Assembly (NCBI RefSeq): GCF_001677475.2
Contig: NZ_CP015229.1
DNA: 64,000 nucleotides
Reading direction: 5' to 3' (one strand)
From: Escherichia coli
GTDB lineage: Bacteria > Pseudomonadota > Gammaproteobacteria > Enterobacterales > Enterobacteriaceae
This document shows, one piece after another, positions 4,544-54,158 of the stretch. A model generated the notes under the pieces. The model was given only the letters and a program-made list of their open reading frames with translations, was not told the DNA's origin and made no database searches. Position numbers and translations under genes: made by a program. Each line of letters starts with the position of its first letter. Position 1 is the stretch's first letter.

Positions 4544-4572
4544 TTAACCATTCCCATACAATTAGTTAACCA

Positions 4573-4605
4573 AAAAGGGGGGATTTTATCTCCCCTTTAA
4601 TTTTT
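4573..4605 (+). terminator. rho-independent terminator after clpX
   Basis: hairpin aaagggggg-atttt-atc-tcccctttaa followed by T-run. Confidence 0.75.
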
Positions 4606-4612
4606 CCTCTAT

Positions 4613-4650
4613 TCTCGGCGTTGAATGTGGGGGAAACATCCCCATATACT
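4613..4650 (+). promoter_or_regulatory. sigma32 heat-shock promoter of lon
   Basis: TCTCGGCGTTGAA (-35) and CCCCATATA (-10) with 14-nt spacer; matches recalled lon heat-shock promoter. Confidence 0.8.
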
Positions 4651-4730
4651 GACGTACATGTTAATAGATGGCGTGAAGCACAGTCGTGTCATCTGATTAC
4701 CTGGCGGAAATTAAACTAAGAGAGAGCTCT

Positions 4731-22290: not shown

Positions 22291-22404
22291 GGGGGCTCTG
22301 TTGGTTCTCCCGCAACGCTACTCTGTTTACCAGGTCAGGTCCGGAAGGAAGCAGCCAAGGCAGATGACGCGTGTGCCGGGATGTAGCTGGCAGGGCCCCC
22401 ACCC
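22291..22404 (+). ncRNA. ffs: 4.5S RNA (signal recognition particle RNA), 114 nt
   Basis: sequence GGGGGCTCTGTTGGTTCTCCCGCAACGC...CAGGGCCCCCACCC matches E. coli 4.5S RNA; between atl and ybaA as in K-12. Confidence 0.97.
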
Positions 22405-37933: not shown

Positions 37934-39865
37934 ATGAGTTATCAGGTCTTAGCCCGAAAATGGCGCCCACAAACCTTTGCTGACGTCGTCGGCCAGGAAC
38001 ATGTGCTGACCGCACTGGCGAACGGCTTGTCGTTAGGGCGTATTCATCATGCTTATCTTTTTTCCGGTACCCGTGGCGTCGGAAAAACCTCTATCGCCCG
38101 ACTGCTGGCGAAGGGGCTAAACTGCGAAACCGGCATTACCGCGACGCCGTGCGGCGTGTGCGATAACTGTCGTGAAATCGAGCAGGGGCGCTTTGTCGAT
38201 CTGATTGAAATCGACGCCGCCTCGCGCACTAAAGTTGAAGACACTCGCGACCTGCTGGATAACGTCCAGTACGCTCCGGCGCGTGGTCGTTTCAAAGTTT
38301 ATCTGATCGACGAAGTGCATATGCTGTCGCGCCACAGCTTTAACGCACTGTTAAAAACCCTTGAAGAGCCGCCGGAGCACGTTAAGTTTCTGCTGGCGAC
38401 GACCGATCCGCAGAAATTGCCGGTGACGATTTTGTCGCGCTGTCTGCAATTCCATCTCAAGGCGCTGGATGTCGAGCAAATTCGCCATCAGCTTGAGCAC
38501 ATCCTCAACGAAGAACATATCGCTCATGAGCCGCGGGCGCTGCAATTGCTGGCACGCGCCGCTGAAGGCAGCCTGCGAGATGCCTTAAGTCTGACCGACC
38601 AGGCGATTGCCAGCGGTGACGGCCAGGTTTCAACTCAGGCGGTCAGTGCGATGCTGGGTACGCTTGACGACGATCAGGCGCTGTCGCTGGTTGAAGCGAT
38701 GGTCGAGGCCAACGGCGAGCGCGTAATGGCACTGATTAATGAAGCCGCTGCCCGTGGTATCGAGTGGGAAGCGTTGCTGGTGGAAATGCTCAGCCTGTTG
38801 CATCGTATTGCGATGGTACAACTTTCGCCTGCTGCACTTGGCAACGACATGGCCGCCATCGAGCTGCGGATGCGTGAACTGGCGCGCACCATACCGCCGA
38901 CGGATATTCAGCTTTACTATCAGACGCTGTTGATTGGTCGCAAAGAATTACCGTATGCGCCGGACCGCCGTATGGGCGTTGAGATGACGCTGCTGCGCGC
39001 GCTGGCGTTCCATCCACGTATGCCTCTGCCTGAGCCAGAAGTGCCACGCCAGTCCTTTGCGCCCGTCGCGCCAACGGCAGTAATGACGCCAACCCAGGTG
39101 CCGCCGCAACCGCAATCAGCGCCGCAGCAGGCACCGACTGTACCGCTCCCGGAAACCACCAGCCAGGTGCTGGCGGCGCGCCAGCAGTTGCAGCGCGTGC
39201 AGGGAGCAACCAAAGCAAAAAAGAGTGAACCGGCAGCCGCTACCCGCGCGCGGCCGGTGAATAACGCTGCGCTGGAAAGACTGGCTTCGGTCACAGATCG
39301 CGTTCAGGCGCGTCCGGTGCCATCGGCGCTGGAAAAAGCGCCAGCCAAAAAAGAAGCGTATCGCTGGAAGGCTACCACTCCAGTGATGCAGCAAAAAGAA
39401 GTGGTCGCCACGCCGAAGGCGCTGAAAAAAGCGCTGGAACATGAAAAAACGCCGGAACTGGCGGCGAAGCTGGCGGCAGAAGCCATTGAGCGCGACCCGT
39501 GGGCGGCTCAGGTTAGCCAACTTTCGCTACCAAAACTGGTCGAACAGGTGGCCTTAAATGCCTGGAAAGAGGAGAGCGACAACGCAGTATGTCTGCATTT
39601 GCGCTCCTCTCAGCGGCATTTGAACAACCGCGGTGCACAGCAAAAACTGGCTGAAGCGTTGAGCACGTTAAAAGGTTCAACGGTTGAACTGACTATCGTT
39701 GAAGATGATAATCCCGCGGTGCGTACGCCGCTGGAGTGGCGTCAGGCGATATACGAAGAAAAACTTGCGCAGGCGCGCGAGTCCATTATTGCGGATAATA
39801 ATATTCAGACCCTGCGTCGATTCTTCGATGCGGAGCTGGATGAAGACAGTATCCGCCCCATTTGA
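37934..39865 (+). CDS. dnaX: DNA polymerase III subunits tau (full length, 643 aa) and gamma (by frameshift)
   Basis: MSYQVLARKWRPQTFADVVGQEHVLTAL... Walker A GTRGVGKTS; matches E. coli DnaX. Confidence 0.98.
   Translation: MSYQVLARKWRPQTFADVVGQEHVLTALANGLSLGRIHHAYLFSGTRGVGKTSIARLLAKGLNCETGITATPCGVCDNCREIEQGRFVDLIEIDAASRTKVEDTRDLLDNVQYAPARGRFKVYLIDEVHMLSRHSFNALLKTLEEPPEHVKFLLATTDPQKLPVTILSRCLQFHLKALDVEQIRHQLEHILNEEHIAHEPRALQLLARAAEGSLRDALSLTDQAIASGDGQVSTQAVSAMLGTLDDDQALSLVEAMVEANGERVMALINEAAARGIEWEALLVEMLSLLHRIAMVQLSPAALGNDMAAIELRMRELARTIPPTDIQLYYQTLLIGRKELPYAPDRRMGVEMTLLRALAFHPRMPLPEPEVPRQSFAPVAPTAVMTPTQVPPQPQSAPQQAPTVPLPETTSQVLAARQQLQRVQGATKAKKSEPAAATRARPVNNAALERLASVTDRVQARPVPSALEKAPAKKEAYRWKATTPVMQQKEVVATPKALKKALEHEKTPELAAKLAAEAIERDPWAAQVSQLSLPKLVEQVALNAWKEESDNAVCLHLRSSQRHLNNRGAQQKLAEALSTLKGSTVELTIVEDDNPAVRTPLEWRQAIYEEKLAQARESIIADNNIQTLRRFFDAELDEDSIRPI
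39217..39260 (+). other. dnaX: dnaX programmed -1 ribosomal frameshift site (slippery A AAA AAG plus downstream stem-loop) producing gamma
   Basis: heptamer AAAAAAG at 39217-39223 in frame (GCA AAA AAG); -1 shift reads GAG then TGA giving a 431-aa product; GC-rich stem-loop ccggcagccgc...gcgcgcggccgg follows. Confidence 0.9.
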
Positions 39866-47279: not shown

Positions 47280-47363
47280 GTAGGCCAGATAAGGCGTTCA
47301 CGCCGCATCTGGCATTTGGCTCTCGATGCCTGATGCGACGCTGGCGCGTCTTATCAGGCCTAC
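47280..47363. repeat. REP/BIME cluster (two inverted REP units) between gsk and ybaL
   Basis: GTAGGCCAGATAAGGCGTTCACGCCGCATCTGGCA and GCCTGATGCGACGCTGGCGCGTCTTATCAGGCCTAC. Confidence 0.85.
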
Positions 47364-49308: not shown

Positions 49309-50529
49309 TCAGTCTTTATGCCGGTTATCAGGCAGGAATATGGTCAACATCCCCAATAGTGGCAGGAAAGCACAGATTTTATAGACTAACTCGATGCTGG
49401 TGTGATCGGCGATAAGCCCCAGAACTGCCGCTCCCAGACCTCCCATGCCAAAAGCAAAACCGAAAAAGAGTCCAGAAACCATACCGATACGTCCCGGAAG
49501 CAGCTCCTGAGCGTAGACCAGAATGGCAGAGAATGCCGAAGCGAGGATAAATCCAATTATCACTGTTAAAACCCCCGTCCAGTGCAGACTGGCGTAGGGT
49601 AAAATCAGCGTAAACGGCGCAACGCCGAGGATAGAGCCCCAAATCACATATTTCCGTCCAATTTTATCCCCTACAGGCCCGCCGATCACCGTACCTGCCG
49701 CAACGGCAAACAGGAAGGCAAACAGATGAAGCTGGGCATTCTGGATAGATAATCCGAATTTTTGCATCAGATAAAAGGTGTAATAGCTGCTGATGCTCGC
49801 CATATAGAAATATTTCGAGAAAATGAGGATTAACAGAATGCTGACCGCCAGTACCACTTTGTTGCGCGGCAGCGGATTGATAATCGTCGCTTTGGGTTTT
49901 CCTTTATTCATTCGGTGCTGTGCCGAGTACCAACGGCTGATTTGCGCCAACACCACGATCGCCAGCAGTGCCGCAAGCACAAACCAGGCAACGTTGCCTT
50001 TGCCATAAGGCGCGATAATCACCGCCGCCAGCAAGGGTCCCAGGGAACTGCCAAAGTTGCCGCCGACCTGAAAGATAGATTGTGCCAGGCCATGCCGCCC
50101 GCCGGACGCCATACGGGCCACGCGAGAAGATTCCGGATGAAAGACCGATGAACCGGTACCGACCAGCGCCGCCGCCAGCAGAACTGCGCCAAAACTGCCC
50201 GCCAGCGCCAGCAGCACCAGACCACTTAAGGTAAAGCACATGCCAATTGGCAACGACCACGGCATCGGATATTTATCGGTCCAGTAGCCGACCACTGGTT
50301 GCAGTAGCGAAGAGGCGAGCTGGAAGGTGAGGGTTATCATGCCAATCTGCATAAATGTCAGAGAAAATTCTGACTGAAGCAGAGGATAAATCGCCAGAAT
50401 CAGCGATTGGATCATGTCGTTCAGCAGATGTGAGAGGCTGATAGCACCTAAAATACCAAACGATGTTCGGGCCTTGGTCGTTGACGCAGCCGCGCCCGCC
50501 ACAGGCTGGGTTTGTTCACTTATTGCCAT
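49309..50529 (-). CDS. fsr: fosmidomycin resistance MFS efflux protein (406 aa)
   Basis: 12-TM MFS protein; matches E. coli Fsr. Confidence 0.95.
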   Translation of the reverse strand: MAISEQTQPVAGAAASTTKARTSFGILGAISLSHLLNDMIQSLILAIYPLLQSEFSLTFMQIGMITLTFQLASSLLQPVVGYWTDKYPMPWSLPIGMCFTLSGLVLLALAGSFGAVLLAAALVGTGSSVFHPESSRVARMASGGRHGLAQSIFQVGGNFGSSLGPLLAAVIIAPYGKGNVAWFVLAALLAIVVLAQISRWYSAQHRMNKGKPKATIINPLPRNKVVLAVSILLILIFSKYFYMASISSYYTFYLMQKFGLSIQNAQLHLFAFLFAVAAGTVIGGPVGDKIGRKYVIWGSILGVAPFTLILPYASLHWTGVLTVIIGFILASAFSAILVYAQELLPGRIGMVSGLFFGFAFGMGGLGAAVLGLIADHTSIELVYKICAFLPLLGMLTIFLPDNRHKD

Positions 50530-50746
50530 AGGAAAGTCACTTTTTCAGGGTTGCGATGTAAAGAATGATCTTATTTGTGATTATTACCCGACTAACATAC
50601 CTGTATGCGCCCCCTGAAGGAAGTCTCAACGCTGAATACAGAATTTCTAATCTGGATACAGATTTATCTTCACCGGACGCAGACTTGTCTATGATGTCGC
50701 GTCATACTATTTTTCAACACGTTGAAATCAGGTCAGGGAGAGAAGT

Positions 50747-52399
50747 ATGAAATTATTGCAGCGGGGCGTGGCGTTAGCACTGTTAACCACATTTACACTG
50801 GCGAGTGAAACTGCTCTGGCGTATGAGCAGGATAAAACCTACAAAATTACAGTTCTGCACACCAATGATCATCATGGGCATTTTTGGCGCAATGAATATG
50901 GCGAATATGGTCTGGCGGCGCAAAAAACGCTGGTGGATGGTATCCGCAAAGAGGTTGTGGCTGAAGGCGGTAGCGTGCTGCTACTTTCCGGTGGCGACAT
51001 TAATACTGGCGTGCCCGAGTCCGACTTACAGGATGCCGAACCTGATTTTCGCGGCATGAATCTGGTGGGCTATGACGCGATGGCAATCGGTAATCATGAA
51101 TTTGATAACCCGCTCACCGTATTACGCCAGCAGGAAAAGTGGGCAAAGTTCCCGTTGCTTTCTGCCAATATCTACCAGAAAAGTACCGGCGAGCGCCTGT
51201 TTAAACCGTGGGCGCTGTTTAAGCGTCAGGATCTGAAAATTGCCGTTATTGGCCTGACGACGGATGACACAGCGAAGTTAGGCAACCCAGAAAACTTTAC
51301 CGATATTGAGTTCCGTAAGCCCGCCGATGAAGCGAAGCTGGTGATTCAGGAGCTGCAACAGACAGAAAAGCCAGACATTATTATCGCGGCGACCCATATG
51401 GGGCATTACGACAACGGTGAGCACGGCTCTAACGCAGCGGGCGATGTAGAGATGGCGCGCAGCCTGCCTGCCGGATCGTTGGCGATGATTGTCGGCGGTC
51501 ACTCGCAAGATCCGGTCTGCATGGCGGCAGAAAACAAAAAACAGGTCGATTACGTGCCGGGTACGCCATGCAAACCAGATCAACAAAACGGCATCTGGAT
51601 TGTGCAGGCGCATGAGTGGGGCAAATACGTGGGACGGGCTGATTTTGAGTTTCGTAATGGCGAAATGAAAATGGTTAACTACCAGCTGATTCCGGTGAAC
51701 CTGAAGAAGAAAGTGACCTGGGAAGACGGGAAAAGCGAGCGTGTGCTTTACACCCCTGAAATCGCTGAAAACCAGCAAATGATCTCGCTGTTATCGCCGT
51801 TCCAGAACAAAGGCAAAGCGCAGCTGGAAGTGAAAATAGGCGAAACCAATGGTCGTCTGGAAGGCGATCGTGACAAAGTGCGTTTTGTACAGACCAATAT
51901 GGGGCGATTAATTCTGGCAGCCCAAATGGATCGTACTGGTGCTGACTTTGCGGTGATGAGTGGAGGCGGAATTCGTGATTCTATCGAAGCAGGCGATATC
52001 AGCTATAAAAACGTGCTGAAAGTGCAGCCATTCGGCAATGTGGTGGTGTATGCCGACATGACCGGTAAAGAGGTGATTGATTACCTGACCGCCGTCGCAC
52101 AAATGAAGCCAGATTCAGGTGCCTACCCGCAATTTGCCAACGTTAGCTTTGTGGCGAAAGACGGCAAACTGAACGACCTGAAAATCAACGGCGAACCGGT
52201 CGATCCGGCGAAAACTTACCGCATGGCGACATTAAACTTCAATGCCACCGGCGGTGATGGCTATCCGCGCCTTGATAACAAACCGGGCTATGTGAATACC
52301 GGCTTTATTGATGCCGAAGTGCTGAAAGCGTATATCCAGAAGAGCTCGCCGCTGGATGTGAGTGTCTATGAACCGAAAGGTGAGGTGAGCTGGCAGTAA
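50747..52399 (+). CDS. ushA: periplasmic UDP-sugar hydrolase / 5'-nucleotidase (550 aa)
   Basis: signal peptide, metallophosphatase motifs (VLHTNDHHG, GNHEFD); matches E. coli UshA. Confidence 0.97.
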   Translation: MKLLQRGVALALLTTFTLASETALAYEQDKTYKITVLHTNDHHGHFWRNEYGEYGLAAQKTLVDGIRKEVVAEGGSVLLLSGGDINTGVPESDLQDAEPDFRGMNLVGYDAMAIGNHEFDNPLTVLRQQEKWAKFPLLSANIYQKSTGERLFKPWALFKRQDLKIAVIGLTTDDTAKLGNPENFTDIEFRKPADEAKLVIQELQQTEKPDIIIAATHMGHYDNGEHGSNAAGDVEMARSLPAGSLAMIVGGHSQDPVCMAAENKKQVDYVPGTPCKPDQQNGIWIVQAHEWGKYVGRADFEFRNGEMKMVNYQLIPVNLKKKVTWEDGKSERVLYTPEIAENQQMISLLSPFQNKGKAQLEVKIGETNGRLEGDRDKVRFVQTNMGRLILAAQMDRTGADFAVMSGGGIRDSIEAGDISYKNVLKVQPFGNVVVYADMTGKEVIDYLTAVAQMKPDSGAYPQFANVSFVAKDGKLNDLKINGEPVDPAKTYRMATLNFNATGGDGYPRLDNKPGYVNTGFIDAEVLKAYIQKSSPLDVSVYEPKGEVSWQ

Positions 52400-52407
52400 T
52401 CCGAAAG

Positions 52408-52430
52408 TGCCGGATATTTGCATCCGGCAC
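52408..52430. terminator. bidirectional hairpin between convergent ushA and ybaK
   Basis: inverted repeat gtgccggat-atttgc-atccggcac. Confidence 0.6.
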
Positions 52431-52435
52431 AATGC

Positions 52436-52915
52436 TTAATCGCGGCGGGCGATATCAACAAATTTGGCATCGAGGATCTTTGCCAGATCGCCTGCCGCCA
52501 GTTCGATATCCAGCCCGCGCTTGCCGCCGGAAACATAAATAGTGGCAAATTCTTGTGCGGGGGCGTCGATAATCGTTGGCAGACGTTTTTTCTGCCCCAG
52601 TGGGCTAATCCCCCCTACCAGATACCCCGTCGAACGCTGCGCGACCATCGGATCGGCCATCTCAACTTTCTTGGCACCCAGCGCTTTTGCTACTTTTTTA
52701 AGATCCAGTTGACCTGCGACCGGCGTAACAGCCACGGCAAGGTGTTTCATATCACCGTTCACTGCGACCAGCAGCGTTTTGTAGACCTGATCCGGATTCA
52801 AACCTAATTTTTTGACGACTTCATCGCCAAAATTGGTTTCAGCCGGATCGTGCTCGTAGGTATGGATTTGAAACGAAATCTTGTTTTTTTCGAGTAATTT
52901 AACTGCCGGTGTCAT
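52436..52915 (-). CDS. ybaK: Cys-tRNA(Pro)/Cys-tRNA(Cys) deacylase (159 aa)
   Basis: [39 protein letters not shown]... matches E. coli YbaK. Confidence 0.96.
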
Positions 52916-53036
52916 GGTAATTTTCCTGCCTTAAACAAAAAAACGAAGCAAGCATACGCCTGATGGCGGTCCAAAAAAAAGAGTCATCTTGCCTAAGAGT
53001 ATTGGCAGGATGGTGAGATTGAGCGACAATCGAGTT

Positions 53037-53120
53037 ACACCGTCGCTTAAAGTGACGGCATAATAATAAAAAAATGAAATTCCTCTTTGACGGGCCAATA
53101 GCGATATTGGCCATTTTTTT
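53037..53120 (+). ncRNA. chiX: ChiX (MicM/SroB) Hfq-dependent small RNA, about 84 nt
   Basis: ACACCGTCGCTTAAAGTGACGGCATAATAATAAAAAAATGAAATTCCTCTTTGACGGGCCAATAGCGATATTGGCCATTTTTTT matches recalled ChiX sequence including intrinsic terminator; ybaK-ybaP intergenic as in K-12. Confidence 0.88.
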
Positions 53121-53913
53121 AGCGCAACATCTGCGGCAAATTCCCTTCTCCATACAGATGTAGTGCACCGACCGCGACCACATAGCGCCCCGGCGGCATG
53201 TTGCGTAATTTGTCCCGCCAGGCGAGATTTCGCTGGTGCATCAGTACATCGTACAGCGACTGGCTGAACGTATTCGGCAGCGTTATTTCATTATTTTGCG
53301 GCGGTGTATTCAGCCACCAGCTCATCATTTGTTGCAGCAACCGTGCGTTGGTATGCCAGTGGGTCAGCGTATCGTCCAGCAGCGTCAGTCCTTTGTCAGG
53401 GAGCTGGAGCAACATGGCAATCTGGTTTTCAGCCCCTTCCAGTTCAATCACGGGTTTATGTTGTTGCTTCGCCGCCTGCAATAGCTGGTAATCGATACCG
53501 TATTCTGCCCGCAGCCCCAGTTTTTGTGCCTGCGTTGCCTGAAGAACCATCGCGATTTGCCACAGCGGTTGGGTAGAAAAGAGTGACGGAGAAATGCCCA
53601 TCTCCTGGCTAATGTGCTGCAGATTTTGTAATTGCTCCTCGCTAATACGCTCTTCCAGCGCCTCGCAGGCAGGCAAATTAGCAAAAGGCGTATCGCTGGT
53701 GGAAACATCAGCCTCGACGATCAGCGCATCGGCGTTTTTGAGCTTTTTGAGCAAACGGGTGGGCAGGGGAGCCATATCGTGACTCCCCATATGAATACTG
53801 CCAATCAGATGAAAATGGCGATTGCCGGGAAGAGAGATATCGATGGCAGGCCAGGTGTAATGATTACCGCGCAGCGCGGCCCAAAGCGTTTTTACCCGGT
53901 ACAACAGATCCAT
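53119..53913 (-). CDS. ybaP: TraB/GumN-family protein YbaP (264 aa)
   Basis: MDLLYRVKTLWAALRGNHYTWPAIDISLPGNRHFHLIGSIHMGSHDMAPLP... matches E. coli YbaP; stop codon overlaps ChiX terminator T-run. Confidence 0.95.
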   Translation of the reverse strand: MDLLYRVKTLWAALRGNHYTWPAIDISLPGNRHFHLIGSIHMGSHDMAPLPTRLLKKLKNADALIVEADVSTSDTPFANLPACEALEERISEEQLQNLQHISQEMGISPSLFSTQPLWQIAMVLQATQAQKLGLRAEYGIDYQLLQAAKQQHKPVIELEGAENQIAMLLQLPDKGLTLLDDTLTHWHTNARLLQQMMSWWLNTPPQNNEITLPNTFSQSLYDVLMHQRNLAWRDKLRNMPPGRYVVAVGALHLYGEGNLPQMLR

Positions 53914-54021
53914 ACGGCCTCCCTTTGTGAAATATCATGCTAGCGCGCGGGGAGGGATGGCGCAAATGGAGTTGATTGTTGCACTTGTGCACAGTGCGTC
54001 ATCCGGCAACTGAGTACCATT

Positions 54022-54103
54022 GCCTGATGCGACGCTGGCGCGTCTTATCATGCCTACAAACCTGTGCCGTAGGCTGGATAAGGCGTTCACGCCGCATCCG
54101 GCA
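54022..54103. repeat. REP/BIME cluster between ybaP and copA
   Basis: GCCTGATGCGACGCTGGCGCGTCTTATCATGCCTAC and GTAGGCTGGATAAGGCGTTCACGCCGCATCCGGCA; same two REP types as the gsk-ybaL cluster in swapped order. Confidence 0.85.
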
Positions 54104-54158
54104 GTCTGCGTCGATGCCAAATGCGCCACCCTAAAGCAGCGCATCCGCAATGACATAC

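Follow-up and report, generated by a model that had tools for sequence, protein, structure and literature searches.

The interval 53037-53120 on the plus strand of the window, the window being the whole 64,000-nt stretch of DNA analysed here, encodes with a probability of about 0.96 the small RNA ChiX, an Hfq-dependent sRNA that has its own promoter, an intrinsic terminator and a compact, passive junction with the neighboring gene ybaP. The family membership of this RNA, its sequence identity, anatomy, overlap with ybaP and conservation, and the complementarity between its seed and its targets, are established in this analysis. Both the sRNA and its arrangement are known, and the observation is a correct and ordinary one. 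ChiX is among the best-studied of the enterobacterial sRNAs, and its junction with ybaP is already found in the annotation of strain K-12 and in published maps of 3' ends. The importance of the locus beyond its correct annotation is slight.

Identity and location of ChiX

An Rfam scan with cmscan of positions 50000-56000 returns the family sroB (RF00368) at 53037-53120 on the plus strand, with a score of 82.1 bits, the gathering score being 44, and an E-value of 1.7e-11. The match covers positions 1-83 of the 83 in the model, is the single match at the gathering threshold within the scanned interval, and is recovered again when the whole window is scanned. The Rfam name sroB stands for the RNA that is also called ChiX, MicM or RybC. 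An earlier note on this DNA had placed an intact ChiX in the spacer between ybaK and ybaP and had named, beforehand, an Rfam scan of the interval as the deciding test; the score lies far above the threshold, and the RNA is intact in that its 84 nucleotides, ACACCGTCGCTTAAAGTGACGGCATAATAATAAAAAAATGAAATTCCTCTTTGACGGGCCAATAGCGATATTGGCCATTTTTTT, are 100% identical to those of K-12 chiX (b4585, NC_000913.3 507204-507287, plus strand). The fold of this sequence, with a minimum free energy (MFE) of -24.1 kcal/mol, is also more stable than that of its shuffled versions (z = -3.9), and the match as a whole greatly exceeds what chance would give.

The gene order is ybaK (52436-52915, minus strand), ChiX (53037-53120, plus strand) and ybaP (53119-53913, minus strand), and is the same in K-12. 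ChiX is thus encoded on the strand opposite to both of its neighbors, divergent from ybaK and convergent with ybaP, the latter orientation having been proposed in the earlier note and now confirmed by the flanking open reading frames (ORFs). The same flanking genes are given for ChiX in a review table (PMC3384567). Among complete E. coli genomes the chiX locus is found in 5422 of 5426. It had also been pointed out that a list of ORFs cannot display this RNA, and the RefSeq/PGAP annotation of two other E. coli strains, SK1144 and GF131, indeed records ybaK and ybaP only. With chiX omitted by PGAP in these strains, an ORF-only view leaves a seemingly empty spacer of 203 bp.

Anatomy of the RNA and its promoter

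The features of the locus, with the evidence on which each is drawn, are as follows.

53002-53030, plus strand: predicted sigma-70 promoter of chiX, with a -35 hexamer TTGGCA at 53002-53007, a 17-nt spacer and a -10 hexamer GACAAT at 53025-53030
53037-53120, plus strand: ChiX (SroB/MicM/RybC), 84 nt; Rfam, K-12 identity and the K-12 Term-seq 3' end
53040-53058, plus strand: 5' stem-loop, CCGUCGCU-UAA-AGUGACGG; MFE and centroid folds, and the first helix of the Rfam consensus
53059-53079, plus strand: A-rich single-stranded linker, CAUAAUAAUAAAAAAAUGAAA, with repeated AAN triplets; sequence reading
53080-53094, plus strand: seed, UUCCUCUUUGACGGG; complementarity to K-12 targets, and invariant in the Rfam consensus
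53093-53112, plus strand: terminator hairpin, GGCCAAUA-GCGA-UAUUGGCC, of 8 bp with 4 GC pairs; terminator scan and fold
53114-53120, plus strand: U7 tail of the intrinsic terminator, whose last two bases are both A of the ybaP stop on the other strand; sequence reading
53119-53121, minus strand: stop codon TAA of ybaP; end of the ORF 53119-53913
53119-53913, minus strand: ybaP, encoding a TraB/GumN family protein of 264 amino acids, the convergent neighbor; ORF and K-12 comparison

The first nucleotide of chiX is an A at 53037, which lies 7 nt past the -10 hexamer. The TTGGCA-17-GACAAT element is the sole promoter-like site within 52400-54200 and is identical in K-12, and the GACAAT hexamer is found 5' of the 5' stem-loop in many orthologous loci. 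From these sequence features we infer that the chiX promoter is used in this strain.

Downstream of the first helix, the AAN repeats AAUAAUAAAAAA are found at 53062-53073. The linker that contains them is presumed, from its sequence, to be the site that binds the distal face of Hfq and makes ChiX a class II sRNA. For the placing of ChiX in class II and for the need of AAN motifs, PMC7987339 cites Schu et al. 2015; the poly-U tail of the terminator is described as binding the proximal face of Hfq (PMC7987339). The linker is followed by the seed, the conserved core of which, UUCCUCUUUGAC, occupies 53080-53091. As for the T-run that completes the terminator, the run reported in the earlier note is present, and its coordinates need a correction of one base, there being seven T at 53114-53120 in place of the six given for 53115-53120.

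Targets and mechanism

Two stretches of the seed region are complementary to known targets. Positions 53081-53092 of ChiX are complementary to CGUCAAAGAGGA in the K-12 chiP 5' UTR, which is the Shine-Dalgarno region just upstream of the AUG, and positions 53083-53094 are complementary to the decoy CCCGUCAAAGAG in the K-12 chbB-chbC spacer. The pairing is read only from these contiguous 12-nt complementarities; RNAduplex with full-length ChiX returns unrealistically long interactions. The chiP and chbBC targets lie outside the 64-kb window, within which the sole match to the complement of the seed is the antisense strand of ChiX itself; in K-12 chb and chiP lie about 200 kb and 1.3 Mb from chiX. 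The K-12 chiP 5' UTR sequence is found in 5424 and the chbBC spacer in 5406 of the 5426 E. coli genomes.

Expression of ChiX, the position of its 3' end, its binding to Hfq and its regulation of targets are taken from the literature and would apply to this strain by analogy. ChiX represses the chitoporin mRNA chiP constitutively, and the chitobiose-induced chb transcript acts as a decoy that pairs with ChiX and triggers its decay (PMC4098024). The pairing of ChiX also promotes Rho-dependent termination inside chiP, and ChiZ, a fragment of the chiP 5' UTR, sponges ChiX (PMC7815308).

In the mechanism proposed for the locus, the sigma-70 promoter TTGGCA-17-GACAAT would drive transcription of ChiX alone, and an intrinsic terminator made up of the 8-bp hairpin and U7 would end it. 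The RNA is laid out as a 5' stem-loop, an AAN-rich linker that would bind the distal face of Hfq, the seed UUCCUCUUUGACGGG, and the terminator, the U-tail of which would contact the proximal face of Hfq. The seed would pair with the Shine-Dalgarno region of chiP and so silence this mRNA. On induction of the chb operon by chitobiose, the chbB-chbC spacer would pair with the same seed and lead to the decay of ChiX, and ChiZ would act likewise. At the 3' end of the gene, the final two bases of the T-run and the A that comes next are read as TAA on the other strand and form the stop codon of ybaP. The overlap between terminator and stop codon would represent a compact junction of old origin, maintained by strong purifying selection on the ChiX terminator, and a dedicated regulatory role would be unneeded.

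The junction between the ChiX terminator and the ybaP stop codon

The protein encoded on the far side of this junction is identical to K-12 YbaP at 260 of 265 positions, and the Pfam domain TraB_PrgY_gumN is recorded for a protein identical to the YbaP of the window. Base 53121 is an A, and exactly 2 bases, 53119-53120, are common to the T-run and the TAA of ybaP. The overlap of terminator and stop codon that had been described from the sequence is therefore real, is 2 bases long, and is also present in the K-12 annotation, where chiX ends at 507287 and ybaP occupies 507286-508080 on the minus strand.

In K-12, Term-seq maps a very strong 3' end of ChiX to 507287 on the plus strand, with scores of 445,279 and 552,306 in two conditions (PMC7815308, supplementary file 1), and every occurrence of this end in the table is classed as primary to chiX and antisense to ybaP (PMC7815308). 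With an offset of 454,167, K-12 position 507287 corresponds to 53120 in the window, the base at which the T-run comes to its end and which is also the second of the three in the ybaP stop codon. For the identical K-12 sequence, the overlap between the ChiX transcript and the ybaP ORF is thus experimentally documented.

A Rho termination region is also recorded antisense to ybaP at K-12 position 507468 on the plus strand, with a Rho score of 3.7 and p = 4e-10 (PMC7815308, supplementary file 2). Coverage upstream and downstream of this point is 1492 and 22 without bicyclomycin, and 2100 and 115 with it (PMC7815308). The position corresponds to about 53301 in the window. This region indicates that a low level of read-through from ChiX enters ybaP in the antisense direction, where Rho brings it to an end.

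A search of the literature for ChiX together with ybaP returned one annotation remark from a RIL-seq study (PMC10954441) and one table of flanking genes (PMC3384567). In the former it is stated that 'ybaP.EST3UTR was considered to be ChiX' (PMC10954441), and the overlap evidently makes the annotation ambiguous in interactome pipelines.

Does the hairpin also end the ybaP mRNA?

The earlier note had further held that ChiX termination and the formation of the ybaP 3' end share sequence. This stands only in a trivial sense, in that any ybaP mRNA must certainly extend past the stop codon into antisense ChiX; the idea that the hairpin serves as a terminator for ybaP did not find support. Such a bidirectional terminator, forming the 3' ends of both ChiX and the ybaP mRNA, would suit two genes that are convergent with zero spacer, and the junction is kept in most of the Enterobacterales among the matches listed. 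Bidirectional terminators at convergent genes are reportedly a recognized phenomenon in E. coli from SEnd-seq work, which also speaks for a shared terminator. On the minus strand, moreover, the A7 before the hairpin can pair with UUUCAUUUUUUUAUUAUUAU, a U-rich stretch lying 12 nt beyond the hairpin, which gives an extended stem in the MFE fold.

The centroid structure, however, lacks this extended stem, and the stability of the fold barely exceeds that of shuffled sequences (z = -2.1). The minus-strand transcript reads, in order, UAA-AAAAA-UGGCCAAUAUCGCUAUUGGCC-CGUCAAAGAGGAAUUUCAUUUUUUU. A minus-strand U-tract after the hairpin was looked for by terminator scan and folding and is absent, the hairpin being directly followed by CGUCAAAGAGG, and the terminator scan calls the site on the plus strand only. 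The K-12 Term-seq table likewise holds no minus-strand 3' end for ybaP (PMC7815308, supplementary file 1), an absence that low expression of ybaP could account for. A literature search for ChiX in connection with a bidirectional or convergent terminator found no papers. With a minus-strand scan and fold that lack the U-tract, and Term-seq tables that contain only the plus-strand ChiX end and the Rho region, the reading of the hairpin as a bidirectional terminator is unsupported, and we consider it unlikely.

A weak terminator-like site is observed elsewhere on the minus strand at 52940-52962, between the chiX promoter and the start of ybaK, and is composed of a 5-bp stem, CAGGC/GCTTG, followed by CTTCGTTTTTTT. 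From its sequence, this site could end ybaP-derived transcripts before they reach ybaK.

Comparison across the Enterobacterales

A scan for the exact pattern AAATTCCTCTTTGACNGGCC, with one genome per species, returns at least 120 loci. All but one belong to the Enterobacterales, the exception being a chance match in a Lindowbacteria metagenome-assembled genome (L060), and almost every locus lies between ybaK and a convergent ybaP. All 17 of the diverse loci that were tested score as sroB, with 54-86 bits; these include loci from Escherichia albertii, Salmonella, Klebsiella, Enterobacter, Serratia and Yersinia pestis, and further loci from Rahnella, Pantoea, Hafnia, Proteus and Phytobacter. Two other Rfam matches are observed near these loci: Ysr224, with 133.9 bits, in Yersinia pestis (L085 1343-1449), where it precedes ChiX by about 800 nt, and the cspA thermoregulator in Hafnia paralvei (L020 5733-6225, 236.9 bits).

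The structure of the RNA is conserved in different ways along its length. Alignment of 111 orthologues with MAFFT and analysis with RNAalifold recovers the terminator helix alone, in which two pairs change from A-U to G-C with both sides of the pair altered among the 111 aligned sequences. The 5' stem-loop is missed by RNAalifold because its sequence is too variable to align, and it was subsequently folded sequence by sequence; a stable 5' hairpin then occupies the equivalent position in 96 distinct 5' regions of orthologous loci, with stem sequences that are unrelated to one another. AUAA-rich linkers are conserved among the orthologues listed.

The junction with ybaP is similarly widespread. 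In a first count, the TAA of ybaP covers the final two bases of the T-run at no fewer than 87 of about 115 assessable loci, and in a stricter recount, restricted to loci with enough flanking sequence, the same 2-nt overlap is found in at least 85; the compared species are related, so these counts do not represent independent events, and shared ancestry inflates the raw number. Among those 85 loci, the tail of YbaP that follows the conserved LYGE motif has a length of between 12 and 16 amino acids and ends in 42 different C-terminal hexapeptides, and the T-run varies from 6 to 8 nt. What is new here, and minor, is that the stop codon of ybaP is supplied by the ChiX T-run and the A that follows it in most of the Enterobacterales examined, despite a varying YbaP tail. 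The junction neatly illustrates how the terminator of a neighboring RNA gene can pin the end of a coding sequence.

The remaining loci depart from this arrangement in several ways. Four Pantoea loci have a TGA that overlaps the T-run by one base. Where the T-run is followed by G instead of A, the ybaP ORF loses its usual stop: in four Phytobacter/Kosakonia-like loci (L041, L048, L066 and L094) the frame continues into the hairpin for six codons (…QKNGQ*), and in Phytobacter massiliensis (L026) it is open across the whole of antisense ChiX, with about 29 extra codons. In about twenty loci, from Pantoea, Erwinia, Buttiauxella, Rouxiella, Hafnia and others, the ybaP stop is located 3-230 nt from the T-run. 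Finally, in Proteus faecis and P. cibi (L065 and L091) the ChiX homologue lies away from ybaP; that of L065 scores 66.4 bits, and in L091 ybaP and ybaK are found about 2 kb from it. The overlap between terminator and stop codon is not obligatory.

These comparisons also bear on a second alternative, in which the overlap is regulatory, with read-through of ybaP providing a cis-encoded antisense sponge for ChiX, or with the collision of polymerases coupling the expression of chiX and ybaP. Were this so, ybaP transcripts that pass the stop codon would sponge ChiX through a perfect complement to its 3' half, or head-on polymerases would let strong transcription of chiX limit the expression of ybaP, or the reverse. 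A ybaP mRNA that extends more than about 40 nt past its stop codon would carry GUCAAAGAGGAA, a perfect complement of the seed and the sole such match in the window, and control of ChiX by sponges is already known from chbBC and ChiZ (PMC7815308). Read-through of ChiX into antisense ybaP also exists in K-12, where it is curtailed by Rho (PMC7815308), and the junction of terminator and stop is strongly conserved among the matches listed while the YbaP tail changes. Against this, ChiX is kept in about a quarter of the species with a ybaP stop 3-230 nt from the T-run or with an ORF that enters the hairpin, which makes the exact overlap dispensable. ChiX is, in addition, very abundant, with a Term-seq score of about 5e5, whereas no ybaP 3' end rises above the threshold, so that titration of ChiX by ybaP read-through seems implausible in quantity. 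A regulatory overlap is accordingly very improbable. The overlap appears instead, from the sequences compared, to be an ancestral compact junction that has been frozen by selection on the ChiX terminator, and to be passive rather than functional.

Conservation of the spacer within E. coli

The ybaK-ybaP spacer, 203 bp at 52916-53118, has 0 changes relative to K-12. Over the same comparison, 25 of 795 nt are changed in ybaP and 8 of 480 nt in ybaK, whose ORF in the window encodes 159 amino acids and is identical to K-12 YbaK at 159 of 160 positions. Had the spacer changed at the rate of the coding regions, it should differ at about five positions. The unchanged spacer, set against the diverged ybaP and ybaK, fits with selection on the spacer. 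When positions 52900-53140 of the window are aligned with K-12 and SK1144, the spacer and ChiX are identical in all three, and differences are found in the coding regions only. The non-coding spacer is the best-conserved part of the locus.

That the interval might be a silent relic, a ChiX-like sequence that is unexpressed or non-functional in this strain, is extremely improbable, given that promoter, RNA and terminator equal those of the expressed K-12 gene over the 203-bp spacer while the neighboring genes have diverged by 2-3%, and that more than 99.6% of the 5426 E. coli genomes contain the chiX locus, with the same holding for each of the two target sites.

The wider window

For positions 40000-64000 of the window, the closest of the 5426 complete RefSeq E. 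coli genomes reaches an identity of 97.6% across 24 kb; identity is lower, at 87-92%, with E. albertii, E. whittamii and two divergent species representatives named 'E. coli'. Positions 50119-56913, 6795 bp in all, match contig DACZAV010000007.1 of the draft assembly GCA_016118615.1 with 100% identity, which shows that the sequence is a natural one. From its sequence, the window looks like a member of an Escherichia lineage without a complete genome in the compared set.

Beyond ybaP, the gap to copA is about 245 bp (53914-54158), which indicates that ybaQ, found at 508218-508559 in K-12, is absent. Strain GF131 has the same short ybaP-copA junction as the window, and a RelE/ParE-family toxin gene that adjoins ybaP in SK1144 is absent from the window.

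At the end of the window, a gene for a TolC-family outer-membrane protein is found at 59489-60844, followed by the first part of a giant adhesin gene (Ig-like / SiiEA, BapA-related) that is cut off where the window ends, at 64000. At least 80% of the 24-kb query is covered in only 941 of the 5426 E. coli genomes, which indicates that the region 59489-64000 is accessory and repeat-rich.

The scan of the whole window at the gathering score returns four other Rfam matches: sraA (4564-4659, minus strand, 106.7 bits), the small SRP RNA ffs (22299-22395, plus strand, 68.1 bits), the dnaX ribosomal frameshift element (39198-39262, plus strand, 96.8 bits) and naRNA4/CssrE (47283-47360, plus strand, 80.7 bits).

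Comparison with known systems

The locus can be set beside three known systems. The bidirectional intrinsic terminators consist of a single hairpin placed exactly at a convergent junction, as is the case here. However, such terminators need a hairpin that is preceded by an A-tract and followed by a U-tract, so that a U-run comes after the hairpin in the transcript of either strand, whereas the hairpin in the window has a U-tract for one direction only.

The closest counterpart is K-12 chiX (b4585), with which the window shares an identical RNA, promoter region, set of neighbors, terminator and 2-nt overlap with ybaP. The flanking genes alone differ, with nucleotide identities of 96.9% for ybaP and 98.3% for ybaK, together with the absence of ybaQ beyond ybaP.

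Finally, the class II Hfq-dependent sRNAs, represented by ChiX and MgrR, are characterized by an AAN-rich stretch 5' of the seed and a Rho-independent terminator with a poly-U tail, and the RNA of the window appears from its sequence to be built alike. ChiX is the founding example of class II, and the RNA described here is therefore not a separate entity but the same sRNA.
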